From: an uncultured virus (IMG/VR IMGVR_UViG_3300042861_002315)
Taxonomy: Duplodnaviria > Heunggongvirae > Uroviricota > Caudoviricetes
DNA length: 20,000 nt
IMG/VR virus record: IMGVR_UViG_3300042861_002315
Reading direction: 5' to 3' (one strand)
Under the pieces are notes generated by a model. It worked only from the letters and a program-made list of their open reading frames with translations. It ran no database searches and was not told the DNA's origin. Made by a program: the position numbers and the translations under genes. This document shows positions 1 to 15,304 of this stretch, in pieces (within the stretch, counting starts at the first letter, position 1; each line of letters opens with the position of its first letter).

Positions 1-182
1 GGACATGGAAACAAACCTATGTAGACGGTGCAGAAATTTGTGCCAAAGTTGATGCAAGTTGGTTTGACAAAAAAGCGTTTTTCTCATTCATTGATTCTAC
101 TGATAATGATTGGAAACTACAGCCACTAGTGCATCAACTCTACAGCCTAATACAGTACTATGGTGTAGACAATATCTTGTAG
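1..182 (+). CDS. 3' end of a hypothetical protein (partial, runs off window)
   Basis: Frame 3 is open from base 3 (TWKQTYVDGAEICAKV...YGVDNIL) to TAG at 180-182. Confidence 0.7.
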   Translation, partial: TWKQTYVDGAEICAKVDASWFDKKAFFSFIDSTDNDWKLQPLVHQLYSLIQYYGVDNIL

Positions 183-283
183 TGATTATTCCTAGCTGTA
201 GCGTGACAGTACAGCTAAGAGTATTCACTCTAACAGTGTATATCTCTACTAACCTCTAAACTTGCCTATAGGGTAAGGAACCA
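181..283 (+). repeat. Structured intergenic element, copy 1
   Basis: TTCCTA 189-194, stem TAGCTGTA/TACAGCTA, TAAGAG 216-221, CTCT 244-247, hairpin CTTGCC-TATAG-GGTAAG 261-277, AGGAA, then ATG 284. Confidence 0.8.
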
Positions 284-820
284 ATGAACAAACGTGAGAT
301 TATAGCCGAAGGGCTACAACGTGGCTACAGCATCGCAAAGTCGATAGACCTTGTAGGTATCGGTGGCTATGGTGACGGTCAATTTTTAGATGAACGTGGG
401 AAAGTTAGAATTACTTCTCAAAATTGGCTAGAGTTCCATACTAACTATGCTTATGAGTGCGAAAGTCAAGATAGACAGTTTTCCCCTTTTGAGTTCTTGG
501 CTAACGACATTAACGCGACTGAAGATAATCCTAGAGTCAAATTTGAGCCTTGGTTTGAATTTGACGAAGCAATCTCTAGAGGTATCCGCAAAGCGCTGAA
601 AGAGCGATGGAAGTCTATTCGTATGACTAAGGAAGATTACTGGAAAACCTTTGATGGCAGTCGCGATTTGTTTGATACAGTATGGCGCAAATTACGAAGC
701 TATGCCAAGTCTTCTATTGATTTAGATTGGAACGATAACAATGCAGTTGAAGATTGGCTAGATACCTTATCTAGTGAACTTGTAAACGACTCTAGCAGTA
801 GGTTTTACATCTATGGGTAA
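284..820 (+). CDS. Hypothetical phage protein, 178 aa
   Basis: ORF with AAGGA RBS; no family recognised. Confidence 0.8.
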   Translation: MNKREIIAEGLQRGYSIAKSIDLVGIGGYGDGQFLDERGKVRITSQNWLEFHTNYAYECESQDRQFSPFEFLANDINATEDNPRVKFEPWFEFDEAISRGIRKALKERWKSIRMTKEDYWKTFDGSRDLFDTVWRKLRSYAKSSIDLDWNDNNAVEDWLDTLSSELVNDSSSRFYIYG

Positions 821-1019
821 ATCAAAATGTAAACAAAAAGGATATCAGCGCAAAACTAGAGATTTGTACGATATCCTACAGCGAACTGTCTACGGTGTAG
901 AAGTTGTATGTACTGAAACATCATGGGCAGATTGCAAAACTAATTTGAAGCTTTACCGTGAAGCAGACCCAAGAGGGCAGTATTTGTATAGAAAATATAG
1001 AGAGAGAATTGCATCATGA
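813..1019 (+). CDS. Small basic hypothetical protein
   Basis: Overlaps the upstream stop; ATGA coupling to the next ORF. Confidence 0.7.
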   Translation: MGKSKCKQKGYQRKTRDLYDILQRTVYGVEVVCTETSWADCKTNLKLYREADPRGQYLYRKYRERIAS

Positions 1020-1216
1020 CACTAACACAAGCAATTGACTGGCTACAAAATCTACCTTGTATCGAAGAAAATCAAACTGATGAGACACTAGACCATGAAC
1101 AGTGGCTTCAATTAGAATCTAAATCTAGGCAAGCTATCGATATTGTGGAGGACTTTCTAAGTAACTCTAAAATGAACTTGATAAAAATTGAACAAAATCT
1201 TTGGTGGGAAAAATAG
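1016..1216 (+). CDS. Small hypothetical protein
   Basis: ATGA overlap with the upstream ORF. Confidence 0.7.
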   Translation: MTLTQAIDWLQNLPCIEENQTDETLDHEQWLQLESKSRQAIDIVEDFLSNSKMNLIKIEQNLWWEK

Positions 1217-1225
1217 AATAATCGC

Positions 1226-1254
1226 TTGACATTTTTCCTAACTGTCTGTAGGCT
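1226..1254 (+). promoter_or_regulatory. Sigma70-like promoter embedded in element copy 2
   Basis: TTGACA 1226-1231, 17-bp spacer, TAGGCT 1249-1254. Confidence 0.55.
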
Positions 1255-1344
1255 TTAAATTTACAGACAGTCAAGAGCAATGTAGCTATCGCTTATAGCG
1301 CTCTTTTCACTCACGCTCAAACTAACTACAGGTTAGGAATTATA
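1226..1344 (+). repeat. Structured intergenic element, copy 2
   Basis: TTCCTA 1235-1240, stem ACTGTCTGTA/TACAGACAGT, CAAGAG 1272-1277, AAGAGC/GCTCTT stem, hairpin CTAAC-TACAG-GTTAG 1322-1336, AGGAA, ATG 1345. Confidence 0.8.
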
Positions 1345-1866
1345 ATGAAACCAACAACAGAAAATATTATTACTCGCAGTACTGAAACTGATAATGTAAT
1401 TGGCATCTATGAAGTGTTTATCTCGCATCAGCGCAATCCTGATATAGATAGAAATAAAAAATCTAAAAACTTTCAAGATGATAGTGACGCTTGGCTTGTA
1501 GTCATCAATGGTCAACGCTTTGATTACTATACAGGCGTAGGGCATCGTCATATCGATAGAATGACTGTGCTTGGTACTAAGTGGGATTATGACTACATTA
1601 AAAAGAATCGTCATAAATTGTATATGGATGTTCTGGTACAAGTCTCGAAACCCGTAACCCCAAAATTCGATAGTATATTGGCTTGTCTAGTACAAGATGC
1701 TGTGGGTAGCGCCCAAACGTTTGATAATTGGTGTAGCGACTATGGCTACGATACAGACTCTCGCAAAGCTCTCGACACATATATGGCTTGTCAAGAAACA
1801 GCTAAAAAGTTGAGACTCGCTAGAGTGCCTGTAACAGCAGAAGCAGAACGTCTACAGGATTACTAG
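1345..1866 (+). CDS. Hypothetical phage protein, 173 aa
   Basis: ORF with RBS; C-terminal FDNWCSDYGYDTDSRKA motif resembles uncharacterised phage/plasmid proteins. Confidence 0.8.
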   Translation: MKPTTENIITRSTETDNVIGIYEVFISHQRNPDIDRNKKSKNFQDDSDAWLVVINGQRFDYYTGVGHRHIDRMTVLGTKWDYDYIKKNRHKLYMDVLVQVSKPVTPKFDSILACLVQDAVGSAQTFDNWCSDYGYDTDSRKALDTYMACQETAKKLRLARVPVTAEAERLQDY

Positions 1867-1967
1867 AACTTTCCTAGCAGTACTCATATTTCGTTTGGGT
1901 ATTGCTAAGAGCGCTCTAAGCGACTCTACCTAACCAATCTAAAACTAGCTATAGGCTAGGAACTATC
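1864..1967 (+). repeat. Structured intergenic element, copy 3
   Basis: TTCCTA 1871-1876, stem TAGCAGTACTCA/TGGGTATTGCTA, TAAGAG 1906-1911, CTCT 1924-1927, hairpin CTAGC-TATAG-GCTAG 1945-1959, AGGAA, ATG 1968. Confidence 0.8.
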
Positions 1968-2930
1968 ATGGCACGTATCAAACGAGTTTTCCAGAACGCT
2001 AGAGAAACAATTCACGTTTTCGCTCAACAGTCTCAAGATGAGGGTAGAAGCAGCAATGTATCTTTCAAACCCTCTAGCACCTCATTAGAGATTGGTGATG
2101 CACTTTACAGCTATAACACTTGCATCGCTGCATTTCGTGAAACTCCTAACGGTGCGAAAGTATTGTTTCTTGACTACTACTCTCATTCATCTTGCACTTC
2201 CAAGCATCAAAGCGCGGTACATTACAGCGTTACGCAACCGATTTACAGCTATGACTATATTCCTCACTGGGTTAGGGACGATGTGAACTACCTTAGCGGT
2301 AGACGTGGTTCTAGACGTGACAATTCCCCTCATACTGTCAAACCTGAATCTATTTGGCAACAATACAAAGAAATTTTTGATGCTCTTGTTGCTACAGTTA
2401 GACAAAAGCGCTTTGCTCGGACTGCTTGCGAACGTCTGAATATGGCTAGAGAGTATGAAGCTAAAGCCAATAGAATCAAGCGTTCTTTCAATCTCGACAG
2501 TCTTCCAGATATTGAGCTTGTCATCACCCCGCAAATGCAAGAGTATGTAGAACTTGCAGAACAGAAGAAAGTAGAAAAAGAAAAGCGTGAGAAGGAAAAG
2601 ATTCAGCGTGACATTGAACGTACTGCAATTGACCGTGAGAAGTGGCTTACAGGACATTGTAATTACTTTCCTCATGCGTATCAATTCCCTATCGTGCTAC
2701 GCTTATCTCCTAGCGATTCTAGCCGTGTTGAAACCTCTAGAGGTGCATTTGTACCCGTCAAGGTGTGTGAGCGTCTCTATCGTGCATTCCAAGCGAAGCT
2801 AATGCCTGAAGATGTGCGTGTAGGAAACTACACTCTCAACAGTGTCAGTGAGCAAGGTATTACAATCGGTTGTCATCAAATCAGCGCTGATGAACTTGAG
2901 CGCTTTGCTAAGGTAATCGGTATCGCGTAA
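1968..2930 (+). CDS. Hypothetical phage protein, 320 aa, with central charged coiled-coil
   Basis: Long ORF with RBS; EQKKVEKEKREKEK segment; C-terminal VETSRGAFVP...IGCHQI motif resembles uncharacterised phage proteins. Confidence 0.85.
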   Translation: MARIKRVFQNARETIHVFAQQSQDEGRSSNVSFKPSSTSLEIGDALYSYNTCIAAFRETPNGAKVLFLDYYSHSSCTSKHQSAVHYSVTQPIYSYDYIPHWVRDDVNYLSGRRGSRRDNSPHTVKPESIWQQYKEIFDALVATVRQKRFARTACERLNMAREYEAKANRIKRSFNLDSLPDIELVITPQMQEYVELAEQKKVEKEKREKEKIQRDIERTAIDREKWLTGHCNYFPHAYQFPIVLRLSPSDSSRVETSRGAFVPVKVCERLYRAFQAKLMPEDVRVGNYTLNSVSEQGITIGCHQISADELERFAKVIGIA

Positions 2931-3007
2931 CTTTCTTTTCTGACTATGCCTTGTAGTGTCTTGCAAGGCTTGCTAGCCCTAATATAACTATGGATGGATG
3001 AATGGTA

Positions 3008-3281
3008 ATGTCTATAACAACTCGTCTTTGGAATGATGCAGACTTAGAACGCCTTGCAACTGATGATAACCTCTTGACCGTAAATCTGCGACAAAGTAGT
3101 TATCGAACTATACGCTAAAGAGATTGCTAGACCTATTATTGATGTCTTACTACAAGTCAACATGAAAAAAGACAGCTTTGAGCTATTTAAAGAGCTTTTC
3201 AACAAAGACTACATCGTGAGAGAGGCTATCTACTTCTTTAAAAATCAAACACTAGATTTTGAGGCTAAAATTCATGATTGA
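3008..3281 (+). pseudogene. Probable ~90-aa gene split by a +1 frameshift near 3082-3084
   Basis: ATG 3008 frame (MSITTRLWNDADLERLATDDNLLTV) stops at 3118. The +1 frame is open 3084-3281 (ICDKVVIELYAKEIARP...EAKIHD) and its TGA overlaps the next start. Confidence 0.55.
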
Positions 3282-3468
3282 AGCTGCTATCTTTGGATTT
3301 GTATCTGGTTGTCTGGTATCTGGTTTGTGCTGCTTTAGAATAGGCTACCAACAACGTATTTGGGATACACTAGAAATTACAGCCGCTAAAAATGCCAAGA
3401 TTGAAGCTTATGAGTCCATACTTGGCACAATGAAACTTAAAAAAGAGATTGGACATACCCACGAATAA
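3274..3468 (+). CDS. Small protein with N-terminal hydrophobic/TM segment
   Basis: ATG 3274 preceded by GAGG; MIEAAIFGFVSGCLVSGLCCF. Confidence 0.65.
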   Translation: MIEAAIFGFVSGCLVSGLCCFRIGYQQRIWDTLEITAAKNAKIEAYESILGTMKLKKEIGHTHE

Positions 3469-3506
3469 TCTATTCTTTTTGACTACACAAAAAACTAGCT
3501 AACGCA

Positions 3507-3589
3507 GTTGACTTTTCCTATCTGTCTGGTATAAGCTACTGGACAGATAAGAGTAATCAATGTTCACCATTACTCTATCACAAAACAAA
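3507..3589 (+). repeat. Structured intergenic element, copy 4 (lacks the UAYAG hairpin), with possible promoter
   Basis: TTGACT 3508-3513, TTCCTA 3515-3520, stem TATCTGTCTGGT/ACTGGACAGATA, TAAGAG 3548-3553, stem AGAGTAAT 3550-3557/ATTACTCT 3569-3576. Confidence 0.75.
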
Positions 3590-3811
3590 ATGACAGATAC
3601 ATTATTTTCAAGACGCACATCAAACCGTAACAACACTGAAATGCTACCACTACCAACATTTGCCGCACCTACTCAAATCAGCTATTCTCTTGTCAACAAC
3701 AATGCAGACTGGGAAAATTTACGCTTAAAGCTTATTGAACTAAGCACAGCATCTATTCCTTTCACTCTCGAAAAAGAGGATGGTATAAAGCGTATTCGAT
3801 TGACCTACTAA
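3590..3811 (+). CDS. Small hypothetical protein (start 3590 preferred over 3560)
   Basis: ATG 3560 lies inside the second stem-loop of element copy 4; ATG 3590 follows it. Confidence 0.6.
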   Translation: MTDTLFSRRTSNRNNTEMLPLPTFAAPTQISYSLVNNNADWENLRLKLIELSTASIPFTLEKEDGIKRIRLTY

Positions 3812-3818
3812 CATCCCT

Positions 3819-3853
3819 AAAGAGAGGGGCTACCCTTAATTCCCCTCCCTTTT
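3819..3853 (+). terminator. Possible weak intrinsic terminator or hairpin
   Basis: GAGGGG 3824-3829 / CCCCTC 3842-3847 followed by CCTTTT. Confidence 0.4.
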
Positions 3854-3879
3854 CTGCCCAACTGTTTTGGAGAAAAATT

Positions 3880-4422
3880 ATGACTACTTATGACACTTCA
3901 GTTAAATTTGCCAAGCTCGGTTTTGATGATTATGTACAATTTGAAAATCGCAAAGTTCAGCTAACTCACTACGACACTGACCACAAAACCCCTCTTTTTC
4001 TGCAATTCGTAGGTGATATCGCGCAACCTGCTTACTGTATCGGTTTTAAGAATGCTATCGACTGGCTGAAAACTGGTGTTCTCGAAAACCCTAAAATCAA
4101 GGTCAAGACCAGCAAAGCCAAACTTGACGGTAAGCACTTGATTGTAAAGACTTGGAAAGCTGCTAATGATGGCACAGTCTTCTCTCTGAACTATGACGGT
4201 AAAGATTTGGAAGTATGGGAGTTTGAGAAAGTAATATTTCCTGACCTCTCAGACTTATCACGAAGCAGCCTTAATCTGTTTTCTCCTTGGTTCTTAAATG
4301 TCTTCACGCCGTCAAAGAATAAATTCCGCTCTACTTTCAATGTAGAACACTGGAATGTCGCAAAACACATTGTAGAACGTATCGCAATCGTGCGTGAGGT
4401 ATTGAAAAATGAATCTCGCTAA
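3880..4422 (+). CDS. Hypothetical protein, 180 aa
   Basis: GGAG RBS upstream. Confidence 0.8.
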   Translation: MTTYDTSVKFAKLGFDDYVQFENRKVQLTHYDTDHKTPLFLQFVGDIAQPAYCIGFKNAIDWLKTGVLENPKIKVKTSKAKLDGKHLIVKTWKAANDGTVFSLNYDGKDLEVWEFEKVIFPDLSDLSRSSLNLFSPWFLNVFTPSKNKFRSTFNVEHWNVAKHIVERIAIVREVLKNESR

Positions 4423-4609
4423 ACTCACCCATAGCTACCACATCTCATTGGCAGAAAAACAAGCTACCAAGACACGCAATCAAGCCAACCTCACTCGTAT
4501 AGCTTCAGCACTTCAACAACACTCTAATCGTCAAATCTTGCAATCTATAGGAGAATATTTAAATGTCTGCCAAAAAACAAACTTGGGTGAAACGTCACCA
4601 TACTTGTAA
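4409..4609 (+). CDS. Small hypothetical protein
   Basis: GAGG RBS; overlaps both neighbours. Confidence 0.55.
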   Translation: MNLAKLTHSYHISLAEKQATKTRNQANLTRIASALQQHSNRQILQSIGEYLNVCQKTNLGETSPYL

Positions 4610-4790
4610 AGGACACAGCACCACAGATATTATCAGATATTCTAATCCTGACAAGCTTCTAACCCAACTGTTCGACGGTGATGTACCTGACGGCTTTGTT
4701 GTCTCACTAAACACGCCAGAACGCATTGAACTTACTTTTAATGGTCAGCCAACTTTTTATTTTGAACCTATAGGGAGAATTAGACGATGA
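4563..4790 (+). CDS. Small hypothetical protein
   Basis: AGGAG RBS; ATGA coupling to the next ORF. Confidence 0.7.
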   Translation: MSAKKQTWVKRHHTCKGHSTTDIIRYSNPDKLLTQLFDGDVPDGFVVSLNTPERIELTFNGQPTFYFEPIGRIRR

Positions 4791-5149
4791 AAGCAATTCA
4801 AGTTTCCTACTCTAATACCACTGGCAAGTATCGCGCCAAAGCTGAGGGTGTTCCTGCTATCATCCGCAGCAAAGAAGAAAACGGTGGTTATACTGCATCT
4901 AAAATCGCCCACGAATTAGCCAATAAATACAATTGGCTGCAATTTAACGGTGAGACTAAATACCGTCTTGTGGAAGGTTTTTTACCTAATGGTAATGATG
5001 TATTCGTGTTTGTTAAAGATGTTCAACCACTCCTAGATGAAGTTGAGTACATTCTTTCAATTGACTACGACTCTCAGAATCGTAACTTGGAACTTTGCAA
5101 AGATACCGTTGACACACTTCGAGAGGTTTATAAAAAATATGCAAACTAA
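4787..5149 (+). CDS. Hypothetical protein, 120 aa
   Basis: GGAG RBS, ATGA overlap. Confidence 0.75.
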   Translation: MKAIQVSYSNTTGKYRAKAEGVPAIIRSKEENGGYTASKIAHELANKYNWLQFNGETKYRLVEGFLPNGNDVFVFVKDVQPLLDEVEYILSIDYDSQNRNLELCKDTVDTLREVYKKYAN

Positions 5150-5729
5150 AAATCTTTCTCGCGAACAACTACTCACTTCTTTTCTGCACAGAGCTTGCGA
5201 CCTCTCTTCTAGTGGTTTACAAATCGACTCTGAAGGCTATCTCTACGCCTCTGGTGAAATGATAGCCGCTTGGCGAGGTTATGGTCTTGGTGGTACATTA
5301 TTCATTGATTGCGGCTCATCTAAGGTGTGCAACCGTAGGGCAGCTAACGACCTCAAAGAGTTGGCAGAAAAAGAAGGAGTAGCTTATTTGTGTTACAACA
5401 CACACTCGTACATTATCTCTCCTGAATTTCAGTTCGCTGAACGTCTAGTCTCCTATGCAATCTGGGCTACTCCTAAAGTAGTGAATCCTGAAAATATCTT
5501 TGCTCAAAGCAAAAAACTGCTTGACAAGGCTATAGAAAAAGATATAAGCTTTGAAAGTATTCAATCATTACTTGATTCAACTCAACACATTGCAACGTTA
5601 TTTGGTTTCACGTTCGATAAAACGTCTTACGACGTTAAGAGACAACAACACATCGAAACAGCAAGCGCAGTAAAAGCGGAGCGCATTGCATACCACAAAA
5701 AAGAGCTAGAGAGGTTACTTGCATCATGA
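5139..5729 (+). CDS. Hypothetical protein (~196 aa); possible distant paralog of 1968..2930
   Basis: ATG 5139 with GAGG RBS; shares an LY-x4-IAA-x-R-x6/7-LF-x-D pattern with ORF 1968. Confidence 0.75.
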   Translation: MQTKNLSREQLLTSFLHRACDLSSSGLQIDSEGYLYASGEMIAAWRGYGLGGTLFIDCGSSKVCNRRAANDLKELAEKEGVAYLCYNTHSYIISPEFQFAERLVSYAIWATPKVVNPENIFAQSKKLLDKAIEKDISFESIQSLLDSTQHIATLFGFTFDKTSYDVKRQQHIETASAVKAERIAYHKKELERLLAS

Positions 5730-5998
5730 AATTAATTCAAATTGGAAAAGAAACCTTCATTCCTTCCGACGCTAAAATTGTAAAGGTCAAGTTAGACCCA
5801 GACCATCCTAAAGGAGTTGGTACTCTCACTATTGTGTATGATGTTCCTCATAACATTCGCGAACAACATGAAGTACTTCATTTGACTGACCCTGAAGATA
5901 AGGCAATGGCACTTCGGGTTTTTAGAAAAATGGCTGCTCAGGTTGTCAACACTACGCCCGAAATTGATTTTTGGGTAAACGTAGTCAATCGTAAATAG
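5726..5998 (+). CDS. Hypothetical protein, 90 aa
   Basis: GAGG RBS, ATGA overlap. Confidence 0.75.
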   Translation: MKLIQIGKETFIPSDAKIVKVKLDPDHPKGVGTLTIVYDVPHNIREQHEVLHLTDPEDKAMALRVFRKMAAQVVNTTPEIDFWVNVVNRK

Positions 5999-6081
5999 AT
6001 TCTCTCTCGCTAGGCAATCTTGTACTACCTAGCCAAAGTATTACCCCAACTCACAAGTTAATTACTTTTCAGGAGATTACA

Positions 6082-6642
6082 ATGACTCTCGCCATGATTA
6101 AAAACATTCAAGACTTCGCCGCACATTTTAGTGCAAATTCACCTATAGAGCTTGAGCGTAGGCTTTCTTCTTTGGATAGCTATGTTTCTTCAGCTACATT
6201 CACAACTGCCTCTGGCGAAAAGATTCAAACTGACTTTGATTTTCTTTGTCGAGAGGATTTTCCTCAAGGAGTTGTTTCAGTGGTTTTCAATGCAACTAAA
6301 GAAGGTAGCGACTATGAGCCAAGCATGACTCCTCTAGTATTCCCCTTTGAAGATTTCGAGATTCAAGAGGCGATTACTTATCTCGATGGTGAACTTTACG
6401 GTAGCCAGTCTGACAGCCAGCACCAACCCGATAAACTTATTGAAACAATTGCAGACGCTCAGGAATTTGTTGCCTCTAAATACCAACAACATTCCACTGA
6501 TACTGTTTTCAAGCCTTACACTAAAAAATCTAAGCTAAATGCTGTTAGTTTTGAAGACTCTGAAGGGTTTGAGACAATTGTTGAGATTCCTTGTACACCT
6601 AACTCTCTAGAACTTGCTTTGCTACTAGCTTGGGGCGAATGA
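6082..6642 (+). CDS. Acidic hypothetical protein, 186 aa
   Basis: AGGAG RBS; rich in D/E. Confidence 0.8.
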   Translation: MTLAMIKNIQDFAAHFSANSPIELERRLSSLDSYVSSATFTTASGEKIQTDFDFLCREDFPQGVVSVVFNATKEGSDYEPSMTPLVFPFEDFEIQEAITYLDGELYGSQSDSQHQPDKLIETIADAQEFVASKYQQHSTDTVFKPYTKKSKLNAVSFEDSEGFETIVEIPCTPNSLELALLLAWGE

Positions 6643-6797
6643 TGACAATCCAACTGACTATTTCAGGTAAAGACCTTAATCAGACATTCCGCAAAGCTCT
6701 AGCGACTGTAACCTACTTTAACGTGCTTACTAAAGTAGGTTACAAGATTTTATTACAAGCTCCTGACGGAGAACTCAAGGAGGCAATCTTAAAATGA
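6642..6797 (+). CDS. 51-aa protein missing from the ORF track
   Basis: MTIQLTISGKDLNQTFRKALATVTYFNVLTKVGYKILLQAPDGELKEAILK; start/stop overlaps on both sides and fills the gap exactly. Confidence 0.7.
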   Translation: MTIQLTISGKDLNQTFRKALATVTYFNVLTKVGYKILLQAPDGELKEAILK

Positions 6798-7285
6798 CCA
6801 CCACTACATCACTACACCATCGCCAGACCGCACCTAAACGTTTCCGCGACCCCTATATCATCGCGCAACAGCTCTCACTGCTCACCCACGCACAGAAAGA
6901 ACTCATTATTTCTAATCATGCCAGAAACAAATGGAAAAGTTACCCTTGGCATTGTACTGGCTACTATGTTACCAAAGGTAGAGGCTCATTCAGCATCTCT
7001 TGTAACGATTATGCTGGCATCAAAGACTACACCCTCTTTTCTGCCATATTAGCGTCAGCGTCTCATGAGAACATCTTTGAGATTGTTTTGAATGCAGACT
7101 ACGAGGTGGTAAAGTTAGCCCTTCGGATAGATTTACCAACTAGTTCTGAGACTGATATCATACTGGTATTAGCTGGTGAACTGGAGCCTGAGCGACTCGA
7201 ATACCAAGATGTGAGATTGGTCACTTGGTACTTAAACGACAAAAATGATAACCACAAAACATTGCGGAAAGAGAGATACAGCTAA
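6794..7285 (+). CDS. Hypothetical protein, possibly DUF4258/BECR-like nuclease fold
   Basis: AGGAGG RBS; N-terminal SNHAR and C-terminal LVTWYLNDKNDNHKTL motifs; the fold call is tentative. Confidence 0.6.
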   Translation: MTTTTSLHHRQTAPKRFRDPYIIAQQLSLLTHAQKELIISNHARNKWKSYPWHCTGYYVTKGRGSFSISCNDYAGIKDYTLFSAILASASHENIFEIVLNADYEVVKLALRIDLPTSSETDIILVLAGELEPERLEYQDVRLVTWYLNDKNDNHKTLRKERYS

Positions 7286-7287
7286 TC

Positions 7288-7473
7288 ATGACATCTAACT
7301 CACTAGCCAGACCTCCTCCGCCTTACGACCGATGACTCCAACTATACTCCTTTCTCTCTAACAATTTCTACTTGGTGCAACTAATGTTTTTTCCTTGGAC
7401 TGGTTTCTGTTTGACTGTTTGGGCTATCTCTGTAACTATCGCACTCATCACCCCCCCAAATGAAGATAAGTAA
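7288..7473 (+). pseudogene. Small membrane-protein ORF with an in-frame TGA at 7333-7335 (or a 29-aa ORF from 7384)
   Basis: MTSNSLARPPPPYDR*LQLYSFLSNNFYLVQLMFFPWTGFCLTVWAISVTIALITPPNEDK*; one frame fills the gap between the neighbours. Confidence 0.45.
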
Positions 7474-8577
7474 ATGACAACTGCCACTATCGACAATACA
7501 CCTAAGTCACTTCACGTCAGCACTACTGGTGCGTTCGGACAACTCGAAACATCTAAAGTAGTCCCCAAGATTACTCCTGACGACATCATCGAGCAAGCCC
7601 AGTTGGAAACATGGCAAGCTTTTATGTATCCCAACATGAATGAAGACAATTTACCTGTAGACGAGCGTAAGTCTAATTACATTCGTCAAGAGTTCCTTAA
7701 GGAAGAGTCTATCAGTAAACCTCCTTTTGCTCTTGAGCAAGAAGACATTGACCATCATGGTCGCAATTTTGCCTTGAAGGTTCCTTCCTCTTACCGTATC
7801 ATCCAGTATCAACAGGGATTGCGCTGGTTAGAGAACTACACTGATGAAGGCTTGATTGAGATTCAAGATTGGCTTTTGCTTGATTCTGGAGCTATTCTTG
7901 CAGTTAATAACCTCATTCCCGATGAAGTACTAACGATTCAAGGCGAAGCCGATAAAATCACTCCATACATGATTTTCTGCTTGTCTCACGATGGGACTAC
8001 ACCTCGCGCAGTCTTCTTCTCTTCGTTCCGAGCTATCTGCAAGAACACTCTACTGATGGCGTTAGCGTCAGCCAAGGGTACTGAGAAATTTTTCGGCTTT
8101 GACCCCAAAAAGGGTAGTCACAAGTCGCCACAAGAGCTAATGGCGATGGCTAAGAAGAATATTGACTTGGCTAAAACTAAGTTCCATGACGAAACTGCAC
8201 CTCACCTCGAAGCCTTGCGTGATTTGCAACTCGATGAACGTGTGGTCGATAACCTTACTCGCGACCTCTTTTCTATTCGCCGCACACAAGAAATTCCGAC
8301 TTTTCTTGATGAAGACGAGACTTATCCTGCCTCAATCAAAAATTACCACAAGTTCAGGGACATTTATCAAAGCTTGGCAGATATAGATATCTTTGACTCT
8401 AATCAGCACACTGGATATCGTTATGCTAATGCGGCTACGGCTTTCGTCAAGACTGTAGGCAAAGACGGAGGATTTGACCCTACTTCAGGCTTTAAGGGTA
8501 ACATGTTTAACAAGGTTCGCAGGAATGCGTTTGATTACCTAGACGAGCTATTACCTGCTAAGCACATCGGCAGTTAG
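7474..8577 (+). CDS. DUF932 / phage-plasmid-like protein (TIGR03299 family)
   Basis: SHDGTT...FRAICKNTL matches the family SHDG...RxxCxNTL motif; YRIIQY and terminal AFDYL also fit; 367 aa. Confidence 0.8.
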   Translation: MTTATIDNTPKSLHVSTTGAFGQLETSKVVPKITPDDIIEQAQLETWQAFMYPNMNEDNLPVDERKSNYIRQEFLKEESISKPPFALEQEDIDHHGRNFALKVPSSYRIIQYQQGLRWLENYTDEGLIEIQDWLLLDSGAILAVNNLIPDEVLTIQGEADKITPYMIFCLSHDGTTPRAVFFSSFRAICKNTLLMALASAKGTEKFFGFDPKKGSHKSPQELMAMAKKNIDLAKTKFHDETAPHLEALRDLQLDERVVDNLTRDLFSIRRTQEIPTFLDEDETYPASIKNYHKFRDIYQSLADIDIFDSNQHTGYRYANAATAFVKTVGKDGGFDPTSGFKGNMFNKVRRNAFDYLDELLPAKHIGS

Positions 8578-8591
8578 TTAAACCTTTCTTT

Positions 8592-8618
8592 TGAGGGAGT
8601 GACAACAAAACTCCCTCA
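8592..8618 (+). other. Perfect 9-bp intergenic hairpin
   Basis: TGAGGGAGT 8592-8600 / ACTCCCTCA 8610-8618; no immediate U tract. Confidence 0.6.
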
Positions 8619-8654
8619 CTCTACAATTTTTGTTACTAACTAAGGAAATTAATC

Positions 8655-13793: not shown

Positions 13794-13961
13794 ATGAAAA
13801 TTCTAGCCTTGTCCGATTTACACCTCGAATTTTCGGCGCTACACATACCTAACACTGCCAAAGCTGATGTTACTTTGCTACTTGGCGACATTCACAAAGG
13901 CATTCGTGGAGTCCAGTGGGCTGCAAATACTATTGAATCAAAGCACATTATTTACATCTAA
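13794..13961 (+). pseudogene. Truncated calcineurin-like metallophosphoesterase (N-terminal 55 aa only)
   Basis: MKILALSDLHLEF (DxH motif I) and LLLGDIH (GD motif II), then HIIYI-stop where the GNH motif should follow. Confidence 0.85.
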
Positions 13962-14003
13962 AGATAGATGTGTATTAAATTTAGATATAGTAAATTAAAA
14001 TAA

Positions 14004-14195
14004 ATCATGAGTACTGCCATTACTTTGTATAATTGCGAAGTTTGATATACCAATATATTAATGCAAAAATGGTTAGGTCGTTGAGATTCTACTTGGCACA
14101 AACGTACAGATGCTTCTCCAGTCTGTACCTCTTTAAATTTAATTGGTTAAATCACATCTTAGTAGAATTGACCGAGGAGACTTACAACTAACAAT
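14004..14195 (+). ncRNA. omegaRNA (HEARO-like) scaffold of the IsrB system; 5' boundary uncertain
   Basis: Directly upstream of isrB. Stems GGTC 14076-79/GACC 14170-73, ATTCTACT 14086-93/AGTAGAAT 14161-68, GTACAGA 14104-10/TCTGTAC 14122-28; loop TCTCC 14115-19 complementary to GGAGA 14176-80 (pseudoknot). Confidence 0.75.
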
Positions 14196-14209
14196 AGGAT
14201 TATCTCTAA

Positions 14210-15304
14210 ATGCAAAATCAAACACAAATCAGAGTCCCAGTTTTAGATGTAAATGGTCAGCCTATTATGCCCACAAAGGCTTCTAGGGCTAGACGTTGGC
14301 TCAGAGATGGTAAAGCTAAAGTTGTCCATAACGACTTAGGTGTGTTTCAAATCCAGCTATTACAAGAAACTTCTGGCACTGAGCAACAAGATGTTGTTGT
14401 TGGAATTGACCAAGGTAAGCTATTCACAGGTATGGCTGTACAGAGTAGTAAAGCTACCTTGCTGATGCTTCATCTTGAGTTACCATTCCTTATTGTAAAG
14501 AAGCGTATGGAGCAACGTAGGATAGCCCGAAGGAATCGTAAAAGCAGAAAAATCAATCGTAAAATTGCTTTTAGATTCCGTAATCACAGACAGTCGCGAA
14601 TTAATAATCGTAGAAGTAAAGGGAATCTGCCTCCTTCCATAAACGCTAATAAACAATTAGAGAGAAGGGTTATCAGTGAACTAATAAAGATATTTCCTGT
14701 TACTAATTTTGTTTTTGAAACAATTAAAACTAAAAAAGGAAAAGATTTTAGTGTGGTTATGACGGGTCAGACACAACAAATTACTTGGTTAGTATCCTTA
14801 TTACCTACCGAAGTTATCCAAGGATGGAAAACATCAATACTTCGGGACAAACTAGGTCTAGTTAAAAATAAAACTAACAAATCAATCCAAGAACCTGCTA
14901 CACACGCAATTGATGGAATTGCCCTCGCTTGTCACCATTTTATTAAGTACGTGGAAGATAAAGTTAATCAATGTGCAGATTGGTTTGGAGATGTCTCAGT
15001 TACTAAATCTCAATTTGTGGTTTTAGGTAGACCTAAGTACTCTCGTAGACAACTTCACCTATTTCAAACCAAAAAAGACGGTATTAGACTAAGGTACGGA
15101 GGCTCTAATACACTTAAAAATTTTAGAAGAGGGGACTTACTACTATACAAATCAAGATGTAAAACTATAAAAGGCTATTGCTCTGGTTTTACTGGTAAAG
15201 AATTAGCGATTAGTGATGTTAATTGGAAAAGGTTAGGTAGATTTTCCATAAATAATTGTAATATATTGTCTAAAAATAGTGGGTTGGTAGTCTATGTTTC
15301 TTAA
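14210..15304 (+). CDS. isrB: IsrB-type RNA-guided RuvC nickase (RRXRR/PLMP domain, no HNH), IS200/IS605 superfamily
   Basis: PIMP (PLMP) motif, RuvC-I VGIDQG (D67), Arg-rich bridge helix RRIARRNRKSR, RuvC-II FVFE, RuvC-III THAIDG; 364 aa with no HNH/CxxC insert. Confidence 0.85.
   Translation: MQNQTQIRVPVLDVNGQPIMPTKASRARRWLRDGKAKVVHNDLGVFQIQLLQETSGTEQQDVVVGIDQGKLFTGMAVQSSKATLLMLHLELPFLIVKKRMEQRRIARRNRKSRKINRKIAFRFRNHRQSRINNRRSKGNLPPSINANKQLERRVISELIKIFPVTNFVFETIKTKKGKDFSVVMTGQTQQITWLVSLLPTEVIQGWKTSILRDKLGLVKNKTNKSIQEPATHAIDGIALACHHFIKYVEDKVNQCADWFGDVSVTKSQFVVLGRPKYSRRQLHLFQTKKDGIRLRYGGSNTLKNFRRGDLLLYKSRCKTIKGYCSGFTGKELAISDVNWKRLGRFSINNCNILSKNSGLVVYVS

Follow-up and report, generated by a model that had tools for sequence, protein, structure and literature searches.

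A window of 20,000 nucleotides (nt) from the uncultured virus IMGVR_UViG_3300042861_002315 (Duplodnaviria; Heunggongvirae; Uroviricota; Caudoviricetes), held in the IMG/VR database, carries a run of small genes on the plus strand, most of which have no recognisable annotation. Four of the spacers between these open reading frames (ORFs) contain an imperfect hairpin with two fixed sequence boxes and a variable stem, and it is this family of intergenic elements, here termed cassettes 1 to 4, that forms the subject of the present analysis. Pfam families were found in five of the 24 window ORFs tested (DUF932, RRXRR, DUF4326 and, weakly, P-loop and GNAT); the same search found no family in the ORFs adjoining the cassettes and no T4-like genes among the window ORFs, and a scan for tRNA genes found none in the window. 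The DUF932 protein (7474-8577) shares 50% identity with proteins of the Pseudanabaena phages PA-SR01 (137 kb) and Pam2 (143 kb), and a megablast search of positions 1-8000 against phages returned a single match, of 245 bp, to PA-SR01. Judged by these similarities, the window phage is a cyanophage related to PA-SR01 and Pam2. The relatives from IMG/VR with which it was compared, contigs G001-G004 and G007-G011, are closer to it than either of these; G002, G007 and G010 are rated as 100% complete and G009 as 98% complete, at sizes of 142-148 kb.

Hairpins between the early genes

The pattern TTCCTA-N20-45-YAAGAG has four matches in the window (189-221, 1235-1277, 1871-1911 and 3515-3553), all on the plus strand and all in spacers between plus strand ORFs (183-283, 1217-1344, 1867-1967 and 3469-3559), whereas shuffled sequences contain a mean of 0.25 and none of 200 shuffles reached four. 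The folding energy of each spacer is below that of its own shuffles (z of -3.2 to -3.4). In RNA folds of all four copies the boxes face each other, pairing in the order U.G, U-A, C-G, a C-A mismatch (CxA), U-A and A-U. Between them lies an inner stem of 8-12 bp that is different in every copy yet paired, and an outer stem adds 5-7 bp, such that long imperfect helices extend outward past the boxes, spanning approximately 55-63 nt with around 20-25 bp (18-25 pairs). The fold of 175-235, which covers cassette 1, has an energy of -22.1 kcal/mol. When a covariance model of the family was run with its filters off, it recovered exactly these four sites, at 61-69 bits on the plus strand; the same four places read on the minus strand scored 20-30 bits, and any other match in the window scored at most 11.4 bits. 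A first-pass annotation of the sequence had reported four intergenic copies with these boxes, sharing the C-A mismatch and continuing outward into hairpins of this length, and that description is essentially correct, since the model search recovers exactly these four sites and each of them folds in this way; it missed the promoter-like motif that overlies copies 2 and 4, and the presence of the family in PA-SR01 and Pam2.

The search of related phages for further homologues that the annotation had suggested found the family in at least 11 genomes, including these two published phages, at two to four copies each. Whole-genome searches gave four strong model matches in G002, three in G009 and two each in G008 and G011; strong and weak matches together numbered two plus one in PA-SR01, three plus one in Pam2, three plus one in G007 and two plus one in G010, and no copies were found in the distant relatives G005 and G006. 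All copies are on the gene strand, within a few kb of one another and inside the first ~5 kb of one early array, which starts at a divergent non-coding region of 1.2-1.4 kb. The family is thus small and local, rather than a genome-wide repeat. A second box variant, CTTTCCYTACG-stem-CGTGWGGAGTGAT, is absent from the window but found in PA-SR01 (L023 952-1010 and 4590-4650) and Pam2 (L024 1732-1790 and 3336-3405); it likewise forms a long helix, in which a pyrimidine mismatch adjoins UUCC.

The earlier observation that the stems differ between copies and nevertheless stay paired in each was borne out when it was examined with the covariance model. In the training alignment, of 15 copies from five genomes, 91.0% of cells are paired, compared to 32-47% when the partner is slid by one to three columns; both sides change in 14 of the 21 pairs, and the covariation score was matched by none of 500 shuffles. 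Fifteen held-out hairpins from six other genomes, in an alignment fitted to the covariance model, are paired in 89.8% of cells, against 30-48% when slid, with changes on both sides in 10 of the 21 pairs. Compensatory changes are seen in five cassette 1 orthologues of the training alignment and in more of the held-out set, including those of PA-SR01 and Pam2, and extend to the outer stem of cassette 2, where TTGACA/AATGT of the window corresponds to TTGACT/AAAGT in G002, an A-U pair having become U-A. Even the U.G pair of the boxes, which is otherwise invariant, is replaced by G-C in a sister subfamily, c0 (GTCCTA...TAAGAC). The cassette 3 orthologue of G002 is without the TATATT part of the loop.

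The type of the non-canonical pairs indicates the strand and molecule on which pairing matters. The inner stems of 22 hairpins contain 38 G-U cells and four A-C cells, or 19 against 4 when counted as distinct subfamily and position events (binomial p=0.0026). As decay of a duplex or cruciform would yield both kinds equally, the excess of G-U implies that pairing matters on the plus strand, and on this comparative evidence the hairpin structure is selected as sense-strand RNA. A 175-nt contig from a metatranscriptome library (run X4, record 17) covers the end of the upstream gene, cassette 1 and part of the ORF that follows, although it is weak support for read-through RNA because such libraries may contain DNA; in general the Logan contigs from RNA libraries covered small and patchy shares of the sequence (0.08-0.20 of words), the uncovered parts being uninformative.

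The element had been thought apparently undescribed, and a search of Rfam agrees with this, with no match at the gathering score over the window and none at E<=5 over 1-4000. Term searches of the main texts of the PA-SR01 paper and of a paper on five Pseudanabaena phages found no mention of such elements, and full-text searches of the wider literature found nothing on hairpins of this kind in cyanophages.

Promoter-like motifs, leaders and the edges of homology

Many of the hairpins coincide with a motif resembling a promoter. In cassettes 2 and 4 the -35-like hexamer is in the outer stem and the -10-like word at the 5' side of the loop (Table 1), and TTGACA/T-17-TAAGCT is kept in all six distinct copies of cassette 2 that were compared. 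Among 32 distinct hairpins from 11 arrays, TTGnnn-N16-18-TAnnnT is found in 15, against 2.2 expected from shuffles, and TTGACT-18-GAAGCT in four others; in subfamilies 2, 4 and 4b, TTGACW is invariant while adjacent stem positions vary. Cassette 1 has a lone TTGTAG-16-TAGCGT in the window that is not kept in its orthologues, which have no conserved -10 suitably spaced from a conserved -35, and cassette 3 has no promoter-like motif. The stricter pattern TTGACW-N16-18-DAAGCT has two matches in the window, against 0.15 expected, and the five complete genomes together have 20 copies of it on the array strand and one on the opposite strand (a reversed-pattern control gave 0 and 2). Fourteen of these 20 motifs are in the early array, seven of them outside hairpins; one, with an A-tract before it, is in the non-coding region upstream of the array, and the copy within the 3' part of an ORF of the window (5037-5729) has conserved counterparts in G002, G010, PA-SR01 and Pam2. 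A generic sigma-70 scan of the window showed no enrichment (56 found, 46.6 expected), having missed the candidate cassette promoters because their -10 is weak. On sequence grounds, we take TTGACW-N16-18-(A/G/T)AAGCT to be the putative early promoter type of these phages.

Two other conserved hairpins were observed in the window. That at 8593-8627, GAGGGAGT-gacaacaaa-ACTCCCTC, has GTGACA in its loop, followed after 17 nt by TACAAT (10 of 12 promoter matches); it is also found in PA-SR01 (L023, from 5065 and from 8202) and Pam2 (L024, from 10063), and constitutes a second kind of hairpin and promoter composite in the array. The other, at 5999-6045 (CTCTCGCTAGG...CCTAGCCAAAG), recurs in PA-SR01 (L023, from 4103) and Pam2 (L024, from 5908), in which the loops contain TTGACA/GTGACA.

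Further hairpins can be drawn in the leader between the long hairpin and the next gene. The AGAG strand that closes the long helix is able to pair instead with a downstream CTCT, forming hairpin 2, and this alternative pairing, proposed in the first-pass annotation, is present in all four window copies (4-8 bp); across the family it is enriched without being universal, extending to at least 4 bp in 21 of 28 distinct downstream flanks and at least 5 bp in 14, against an average of 5.8 and at most 12 among 300 shuffles of the flanks. Hairpin 3, which has CUAUAGG at its top and a covarying stem, reaches the ribosome-binding site (RBS) in cassettes 1-3. An RNAalifold consensus of eight orthologous leaders retained hairpin 3, with compensatory changes (U-A to C-G and U-A to A-U), and did not recover hairpin 2. 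The complementarity of TTCCT(A) to the RBS of copies 1-3 that had been pointed out earlier is visible in the sequence, TTCCTA being complementary to TAAGGAA or TAGGAA and, for copies 2 and 3, complementing TAGGAA exactly. Together, these features would allow refolding that is either processing-induced or kinetic. The start of the gene following cassette 4 is ambiguous between 3560 and 3590, the ATG at 3560 falling within hairpin 2; its product is 83 residues long in the window, compared to a shorter form of 73 residues in G001 and G008.

The cassettes also mark the places at which related genomes cease to resemble one another. In BLAST comparisons of window positions 1-6200 with six relatives, blocks of similarity start at 175, 180, 1226 (twice), 3505 and 3508 and end at 3560 and 3571, coinciding with hairpin edges, and contigs from other samples depart from the window at 183, 264, 1226, 1313, 1927, 3508 and 3575. 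In G003 (3508-3560) and PA-SR01 (3505-3571) cassette 4 stands as a homologous island with unrelated genes on both sides, and in Pam2 a hairpin of the cassette 1 type precedes a different gene. A map of gene families in 11 arrays likewise places different genes after one hairpin type, with cassette 4 preceding F07, F27 or F67. Both gene F04 and the type 3 hairpin are absent from G009 and G008, where the leader is chimeric, that of the type 2 hairpin being fused to the other leader within the shared CTCTTTTC(A/G)CTCA; this is the product expected of exchange between two cassettes. The suggestion that the genes between the hairpins can be shuffled is therefore upheld by comparison with related phages, among which homology breaks at the hairpin edges.

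Two further observations concern rearranged sequence. Pam2 contains an orphan 3' half of the cassette 4 hairpin, GAACAGATAAGAG with its leader (L024 2911-3054), directly after a gene annotated as a transposase and with no 5' half. In the window, at 13794-15304, a metallophosphoesterase gene is truncated after its 55th residue, the alignment to the intact homologue in Pam2 covering residues 1-55 alone (93% identity), and is followed by a 248-nt non-coding stretch and then a 364-residue RRXRR-domain protein (PF14239, 1e-44); this last gene looks like an inserted mobile gene of nuclease type.

Reading frames enclosed by a sister subfamily

In the relatives, subfamily c0 sits upstream of the part covered by the window, with arms AGTCCTA-ACTGTGCTGT and ACAGCACAGC-TAAGACT. 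These form a closed hairpin in Pam2 (L024 134-200) and PA-SR01 (L030 181-260, reverse strand). An open form was found in 10 slots on nine contigs (Table 1), in which the arms are 259-440 nt apart around one ORF of 54-112 residues. Conservation of the slots' leader (AAGCTTATCAC...ATAGGAGATAAGnnnATG) and trailer (TAA-N-TAAGCT-GACAGC) extends as far as the start and stop codons, and the inserts have a copy of AAGCT at either end; the enclosed ORFs comprise seven groups with no similarity detectable by BLASTP (E<1e-3), and seven ORFs from these slots had no Pfam family. The three-strand topology of the main family is found in c0 in other letters (CTAGTC / GACTAG / CTAGC...GCTAG). Neither the 11 arrays nor exact-match contig scans contained an open, ORF-containing form of subfamilies 1-4. 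Scans of viral contigs with 14- and 15-mers gave mostly chance matches, which were dropped after a check for the closing arm, and seven further related contigs for c0; scans with 18-mers for cassettes 4 and 2 added one related contig, L173. In G002 a non-coding direct repeat of ~260 nt (L004 7131-7395 and 7826-8087) is placed between one c0 unit's 3' arm and the following unit's 5' arm.

Table 1. Positions and composition of the hairpins, promoter-like motifs and c0 slots; positions are those of the window unless a contig is named.
Feature	Position	Strand	Composition
Cassette 1, long hairpin	177..233	+	Boxes TTCCTA 189-194, TAAGAG 216-221; inner stem AGCTGTA/TACAGCT; outer stem AGTGA.TTA/TA.TTCACT; model 61.4 bits
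Cassette 2, long hairpin	1224..1286	+	Boxes TTCCTA 1235-1240, CAAGAG 1272-1277; inner stem ACTGTCTGTAGG/TTTACAGACAGT with G-U pairs; outer stem ACATT/AATGT; model 61.3 bits
Cassette 3, long hairpin	1864..1918	+	Boxes TTCCTA 1871-1876, TAAGAG 1906-1911; inner stem TAGCAGTACTCA/TGGGTATTGCTA with two G-U pairs; outer stem TAGAAC/GCTCTA; model 69.4 bits
Cassette 4, long hairpin	3504..3563	+	Boxes TTCCTA 3515-3520, TAAGAG 3548-3553; inner stem TCTGTCTGGT/ACTGGACAGA with adjacent U.G and G.U pairs; outer stem TTGA/TCAA; model 65.2 bits
Hairpin 2 of cassette 1	218..231	+	AGAGT attc ACTCT; 5' strand is the 3' strand of the long hairpin
Hairpin 2 equivalent	1274-1304	+	AGAGC...GCTCT
Hairpin 2 equivalent	1908-1927	+	AGAG...CTCT
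Hairpin 2 equivalent	3550-3576	+	AGAGTAAT...ATTACTCT
Hairpin 3 of cassette 1	261..277	+	CTTGCC-TATA-GGGTAAG; 3' arm enters RBS TAAGGAA before ATG 284
Hairpin 3 equivalent	1322-1336	+	
Hairpin 3 equivalent	1945-1959	+	
Promoter-like motif, cassette 2	1226..1254	+	TTGACA (1226-1231), 17 nt, TAGGCT (1249-1254)
Promoter-like motif, cassette 4	3508..3537	+	TTGACT, 18 nt, TAAGCT
Promoter-like motif outside any hairpin	5521..5550	+	TTGACA, 18 nt, TAAGCT; 3' part of ORF 5037-5729
c0 open slots (G002)	L004 7371-7806 and 8069-8452		
c0 open slot	L006 1672-2090		
c0 open slot	L008 6950-7270		
c0 open slots, further contigs	L043, L049, L055, L056, L058, L064		

Candidate functions and known systems

Our preferred reading, to which we assign a probability of about one half, is that the cassettes are composites in which a hairpin serving as an RNA boundary or processing element is combined with a leader and often with an early promoter, resembling the promoter early stem-loops (PeSLs) of T4-like phages and delimiting exchangeable ORFan modules. 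The long hairpin, with its invariant UUCCUA/YAAGAG box helix (CxA) held between covarying stems, would form in RNA transcribed from further upstream, and would there act as a boundary element on read-through early transcripts. Its most likely form is a site of double-strand-specific (RNase III-type) processing, or of stabilisation, that separates cistrons and may insulate one from the next; once the RNA was cut, its 3' strand (AGAG...) could fold anew against the downstream CUCU, which would place a hairpin at the newly made 5' end. In approximately 60% of copies (subfamilies 2, 4, 4b and 1b) the hairpin appears to overlie a sigma-70-type early promoter, having TTGACW as a -35 in the outer stem, box 1 and the 5' arm as the spacer, and (A/G/T)AAGCT as a -10 at the 5' side of the loop. 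Transcription would then restart inside the cassette. As such a transcript would start a few bases before box 2 and be without the 5' arm, the long hairpin would be present only on RNA derived from upstream, and the restarted RNA would carry hairpin 2 near its 5' end. Given that conserved repeats here adjoin fast-changing ORFans, the cassettes would also serve as crossover points for the replacement, loss and gain of genes among co-circulating phages.

The PeSL precedent was named in the first-pass annotation, and of the known systems it is the best fit. These elements are described as having a stem-loop that either separates the -35 from the -10 or overlaps the -10, with a Shine-Dalgarno (SD) sequence and ATG after it, beside ORFans (PMC2839356), and recombination between copies is given as the explanation for insertions, deletions and replacements in hyperplastic early regions (PMC2839356, PMC4122927). 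The hairpins described here share with PeSLs the short intergenic cassette, the hyperplastic early region, the combination of a sigma-70-like promoter motif with a stem-loop, and the adjoining ORFans. Their 5' arm forms the spacer, with the candidate -10 word on the loop's 5' side, an SD sequence and ATG follow 60-90 nt downstream, and insertions, deletions and replacements between relatives lie at the elements, next to ORFs with no Pfam family. As to the sigma-70-like early promoter (-35, about 17 nt, -10) that every PeSL has, 15 plus four of the 32 hairpins carry a candidate motif and the 13 of subfamilies 1 and 3 carry none. Further traits of PeSLs are a stem-loop working as a terminator or attenuator and mini-circles that arise by exchange between elements; in the present family the hairpins have no U-tract after them.

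The differences from PeSLs are also considerable. The carrier is a siphovirus-type cyanophage of about 140 kb, unrelated in lineage and host; it is not a T4-like myovirus, its nearest named relatives being PA-SR01 and Pam2, at 50% protein identity, and the window showing no T4-like genes. At 20-25 bp the helices far exceed those of PeSLs in length, and they have invariant mismatched boxes and clear covariation at the RNA level; there is no G/C run or U-tract, and the -10 word is nAAGCT instead of TATAAT. The promoter motif is missing from ~40% of copies, there are only two to four copies per genome, and one subfamily has a whole ORF inside the loop. By this comparison we file the family as akin to PeSLs but not a member, and the RNA helix, which is universal, as most likely acting on read-through early transcripts. 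A looser parallel is provided by the start-associated sequence (SAS) and extended SAS (ESAS) repeats of Cluster K mycobacteriophages, which are described as intergenic and tied to the translation starts of a subset of genes, with function unknown (PMC3203893). Both are repeated intergenic motifs at the starts of a gene subset; as reported in the same source, however, ESAS arms keep a sequence consensus without covariation and number 11-19 copies genome-wide, and the motif and host are different (PMC3203893).

Several points weigh against the composite reading. The promoter is not a defining part of the family, because subfamilies 1 and 3, with 13 of the 32 distinct hairpins, have no convincing -35/-10 pair. 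AAGCT recurs unchanged as the -10 candidate of four subfamilies; this is more conserved than TAnnnT requires, and AAGCT may therefore serve another role. As RNA from an embedded promoter would be without the 5' arm, no single RNA could be subject to both the hairpin and the promoter. In seven of the 28 flanks hairpin 2 is missing or has fewer than 4 bp. The covariation counts include closely related sequences, so that their cells are not independent events, and several outer-stem positions are poorly paired (columns 7, 8 and 12 in both the training and held-out alignments). Finally, the evidence from RNA libraries consists of assembled contigs, which are unable to reveal the 5' or 3' ends of transcripts.

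The alternative that fares best, although still unlikely, is that the cassettes are RNase III-type processing sites and nothing else, with TTGACW...AAGCT a by-product of pairing or descent. The RNase III sites between T7 early genes and in SP82/SPO1 early RNA are repeated imperfect intercistronic hairpins with an internal mismatch or loop and conserved sequence at the presumed cut site. The cassettes are similar in offering about two turns of G-U-rich double-stranded RNA (~20-25 bp) with the fixed CxA and further mismatches, in their intercistronic position and sense-strand bias and, weakly, in the RNA contig over cassette 1. Subfamilies 1 and 3 retain the hairpin without the promoter motif; the -35 is itself partly paired, its TTGA with a TCAA further downstream, and the hexamer's final base covaries with the one opposite; the c0 arms enclose a whole ORF, for which the stems that flank rRNAs provide an analogy. 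Against this reading, the TTGACA-N17/18-nAAGCT motif recurs seven times in the arrays outside hairpins and has a strand bias of 20:1, and TTGACW is invariant in subfamilies 2, 4 and 4b where neighbouring stem positions are variable. Cleavage is moreover a prediction from sequence in this case, the host is a cyanobacterium, and many copies overlap a promoter motif.

More doubtful is the idea that the hairpin is a docking frame for gene cassettes, with small circular ORF cassettes integrating at the AAGCT of the loop. It is suggested by subfamily c0, because unrelated ORFs share a leader and trailer, AAGCT flanks the inserts, and PA-SR01 and Pam2 carry an empty closed hairpin. If true, this would represent integron-like gene capture in a lytic cyanophage without a tyrosine recombinase, and the bracketing stem might also excise or protect the mRNA of the captured ORF.

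It is improbable that the cassettes are cis-acting translational switches, in which AGAG would pair with either box 1 or CUCU and a freed box 1 (UUCCUA), resembling an anti-Shine-Dalgarno sequence, would mask the UAGGAA RBS. The three-strand topology of all four window copies, its recurrence in c0 with different letters, the AGAG/CUCU pairing in 21 of 28 flanks, the exact complementarity to TAGGAA in copies 2 and 3, and the covarying hairpin 3 that overlaps the RBS would all suit such a mechanism. Cassette 4 and several relatives, however, use GGAG, GAGG or no RBS and yet keep box 1, the consensus of eight leaders is without hairpin 2, and we know of no ligand or protein partner, which we also count against it.

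Still harder to credit is a DNA site of the attC type, at which a recombinase would recognise a folded single strand and insert or excise gene cassettes. The attC sites of integrons are imperfect inverted repeats with core sites RYYYAAC ... GTTRRRY and a variable, covarying centre, of which one folded strand is functional. The resemblance lies in short conserved outer boxes around a variable centre whose structure is conserved, in an array of small same-strand ORFs; the strand asymmetry is compatible with a single folded DNA strand, and unrelated ORFs with AAGCT at both ends are found within the c0 loop. The boxes, however, are TTCCTA/YAAGAG in all copies rather than the attC core, the hairpins lie upstream of RBS-bearing leaders, often with promoter motifs, the open form is seen only in c0, and breakpoints fall at either hairpin edge and also in the leaders, a scatter that homologous exchange would produce. 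The tyrosine recombinase family PF00589 has no matches in any of the five complete genomes, controls being positive in 14 of 14 genomes. Together with the bias for G-T over A-C, which disfavours a symmetric cruciform, this argues against the first-pass proposal of a DNA hairpin acting as a site-specific recombination site.

It is very improbable that the elements are operators for a DNA-binding repressor silencing early promoters. The inverted repeats of subfamilies 2 and 4 do overlap the -35 to +10 region of the promoter-like motifs, much as inverted repeats overlie anti-CRISPR promoters; their arms, however, differ between copies and covary rather than hold one sequence, the fixed boxes vary in spacing from 21 to 34 nt, the G-U pairs would be mismatches irrelevant to duplex DNA, and copies 1 and 3 have no promoters. 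Intrinsic terminators were rejected, as a terminator scan lists none of the four sites and the hairpins are followed by AAGAG and mixed sequence with no U-tract; attenuation is a weaker alternative because ordinary U-tract hairpin terminators exist elsewhere in the window (terminator scan; 3823-3855 by eye). Mimics of CRISPR repeats, nut/put antitermination sites and Frpo-type single-strand promoters were dismissed on the grounds that the arms vary, the elements recur before many genes, and the pairing bias is towards the sense strand and not the template strand.

Under the composite reading, the cassettes would supply testable signals for regulation and exchange in a cyanophage early region that is otherwise unannotated, in a group of which PA-SR01 and Pam2 are in culture. 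The concept of PeSLs, in which promoter and stem-loop cassettes both drive and shuffle ORFans, would be extended from T4-like coliphages to unrelated freshwater cyanophages, with the addition, beyond the original description, of direct comparative evidence for a stem selected as RNA. The slots with an ORF in the loop would form a natural catalogue of interchangeable early genes, possibly involved in host takeover or anti-defence, and may hint at how phages acquire them.

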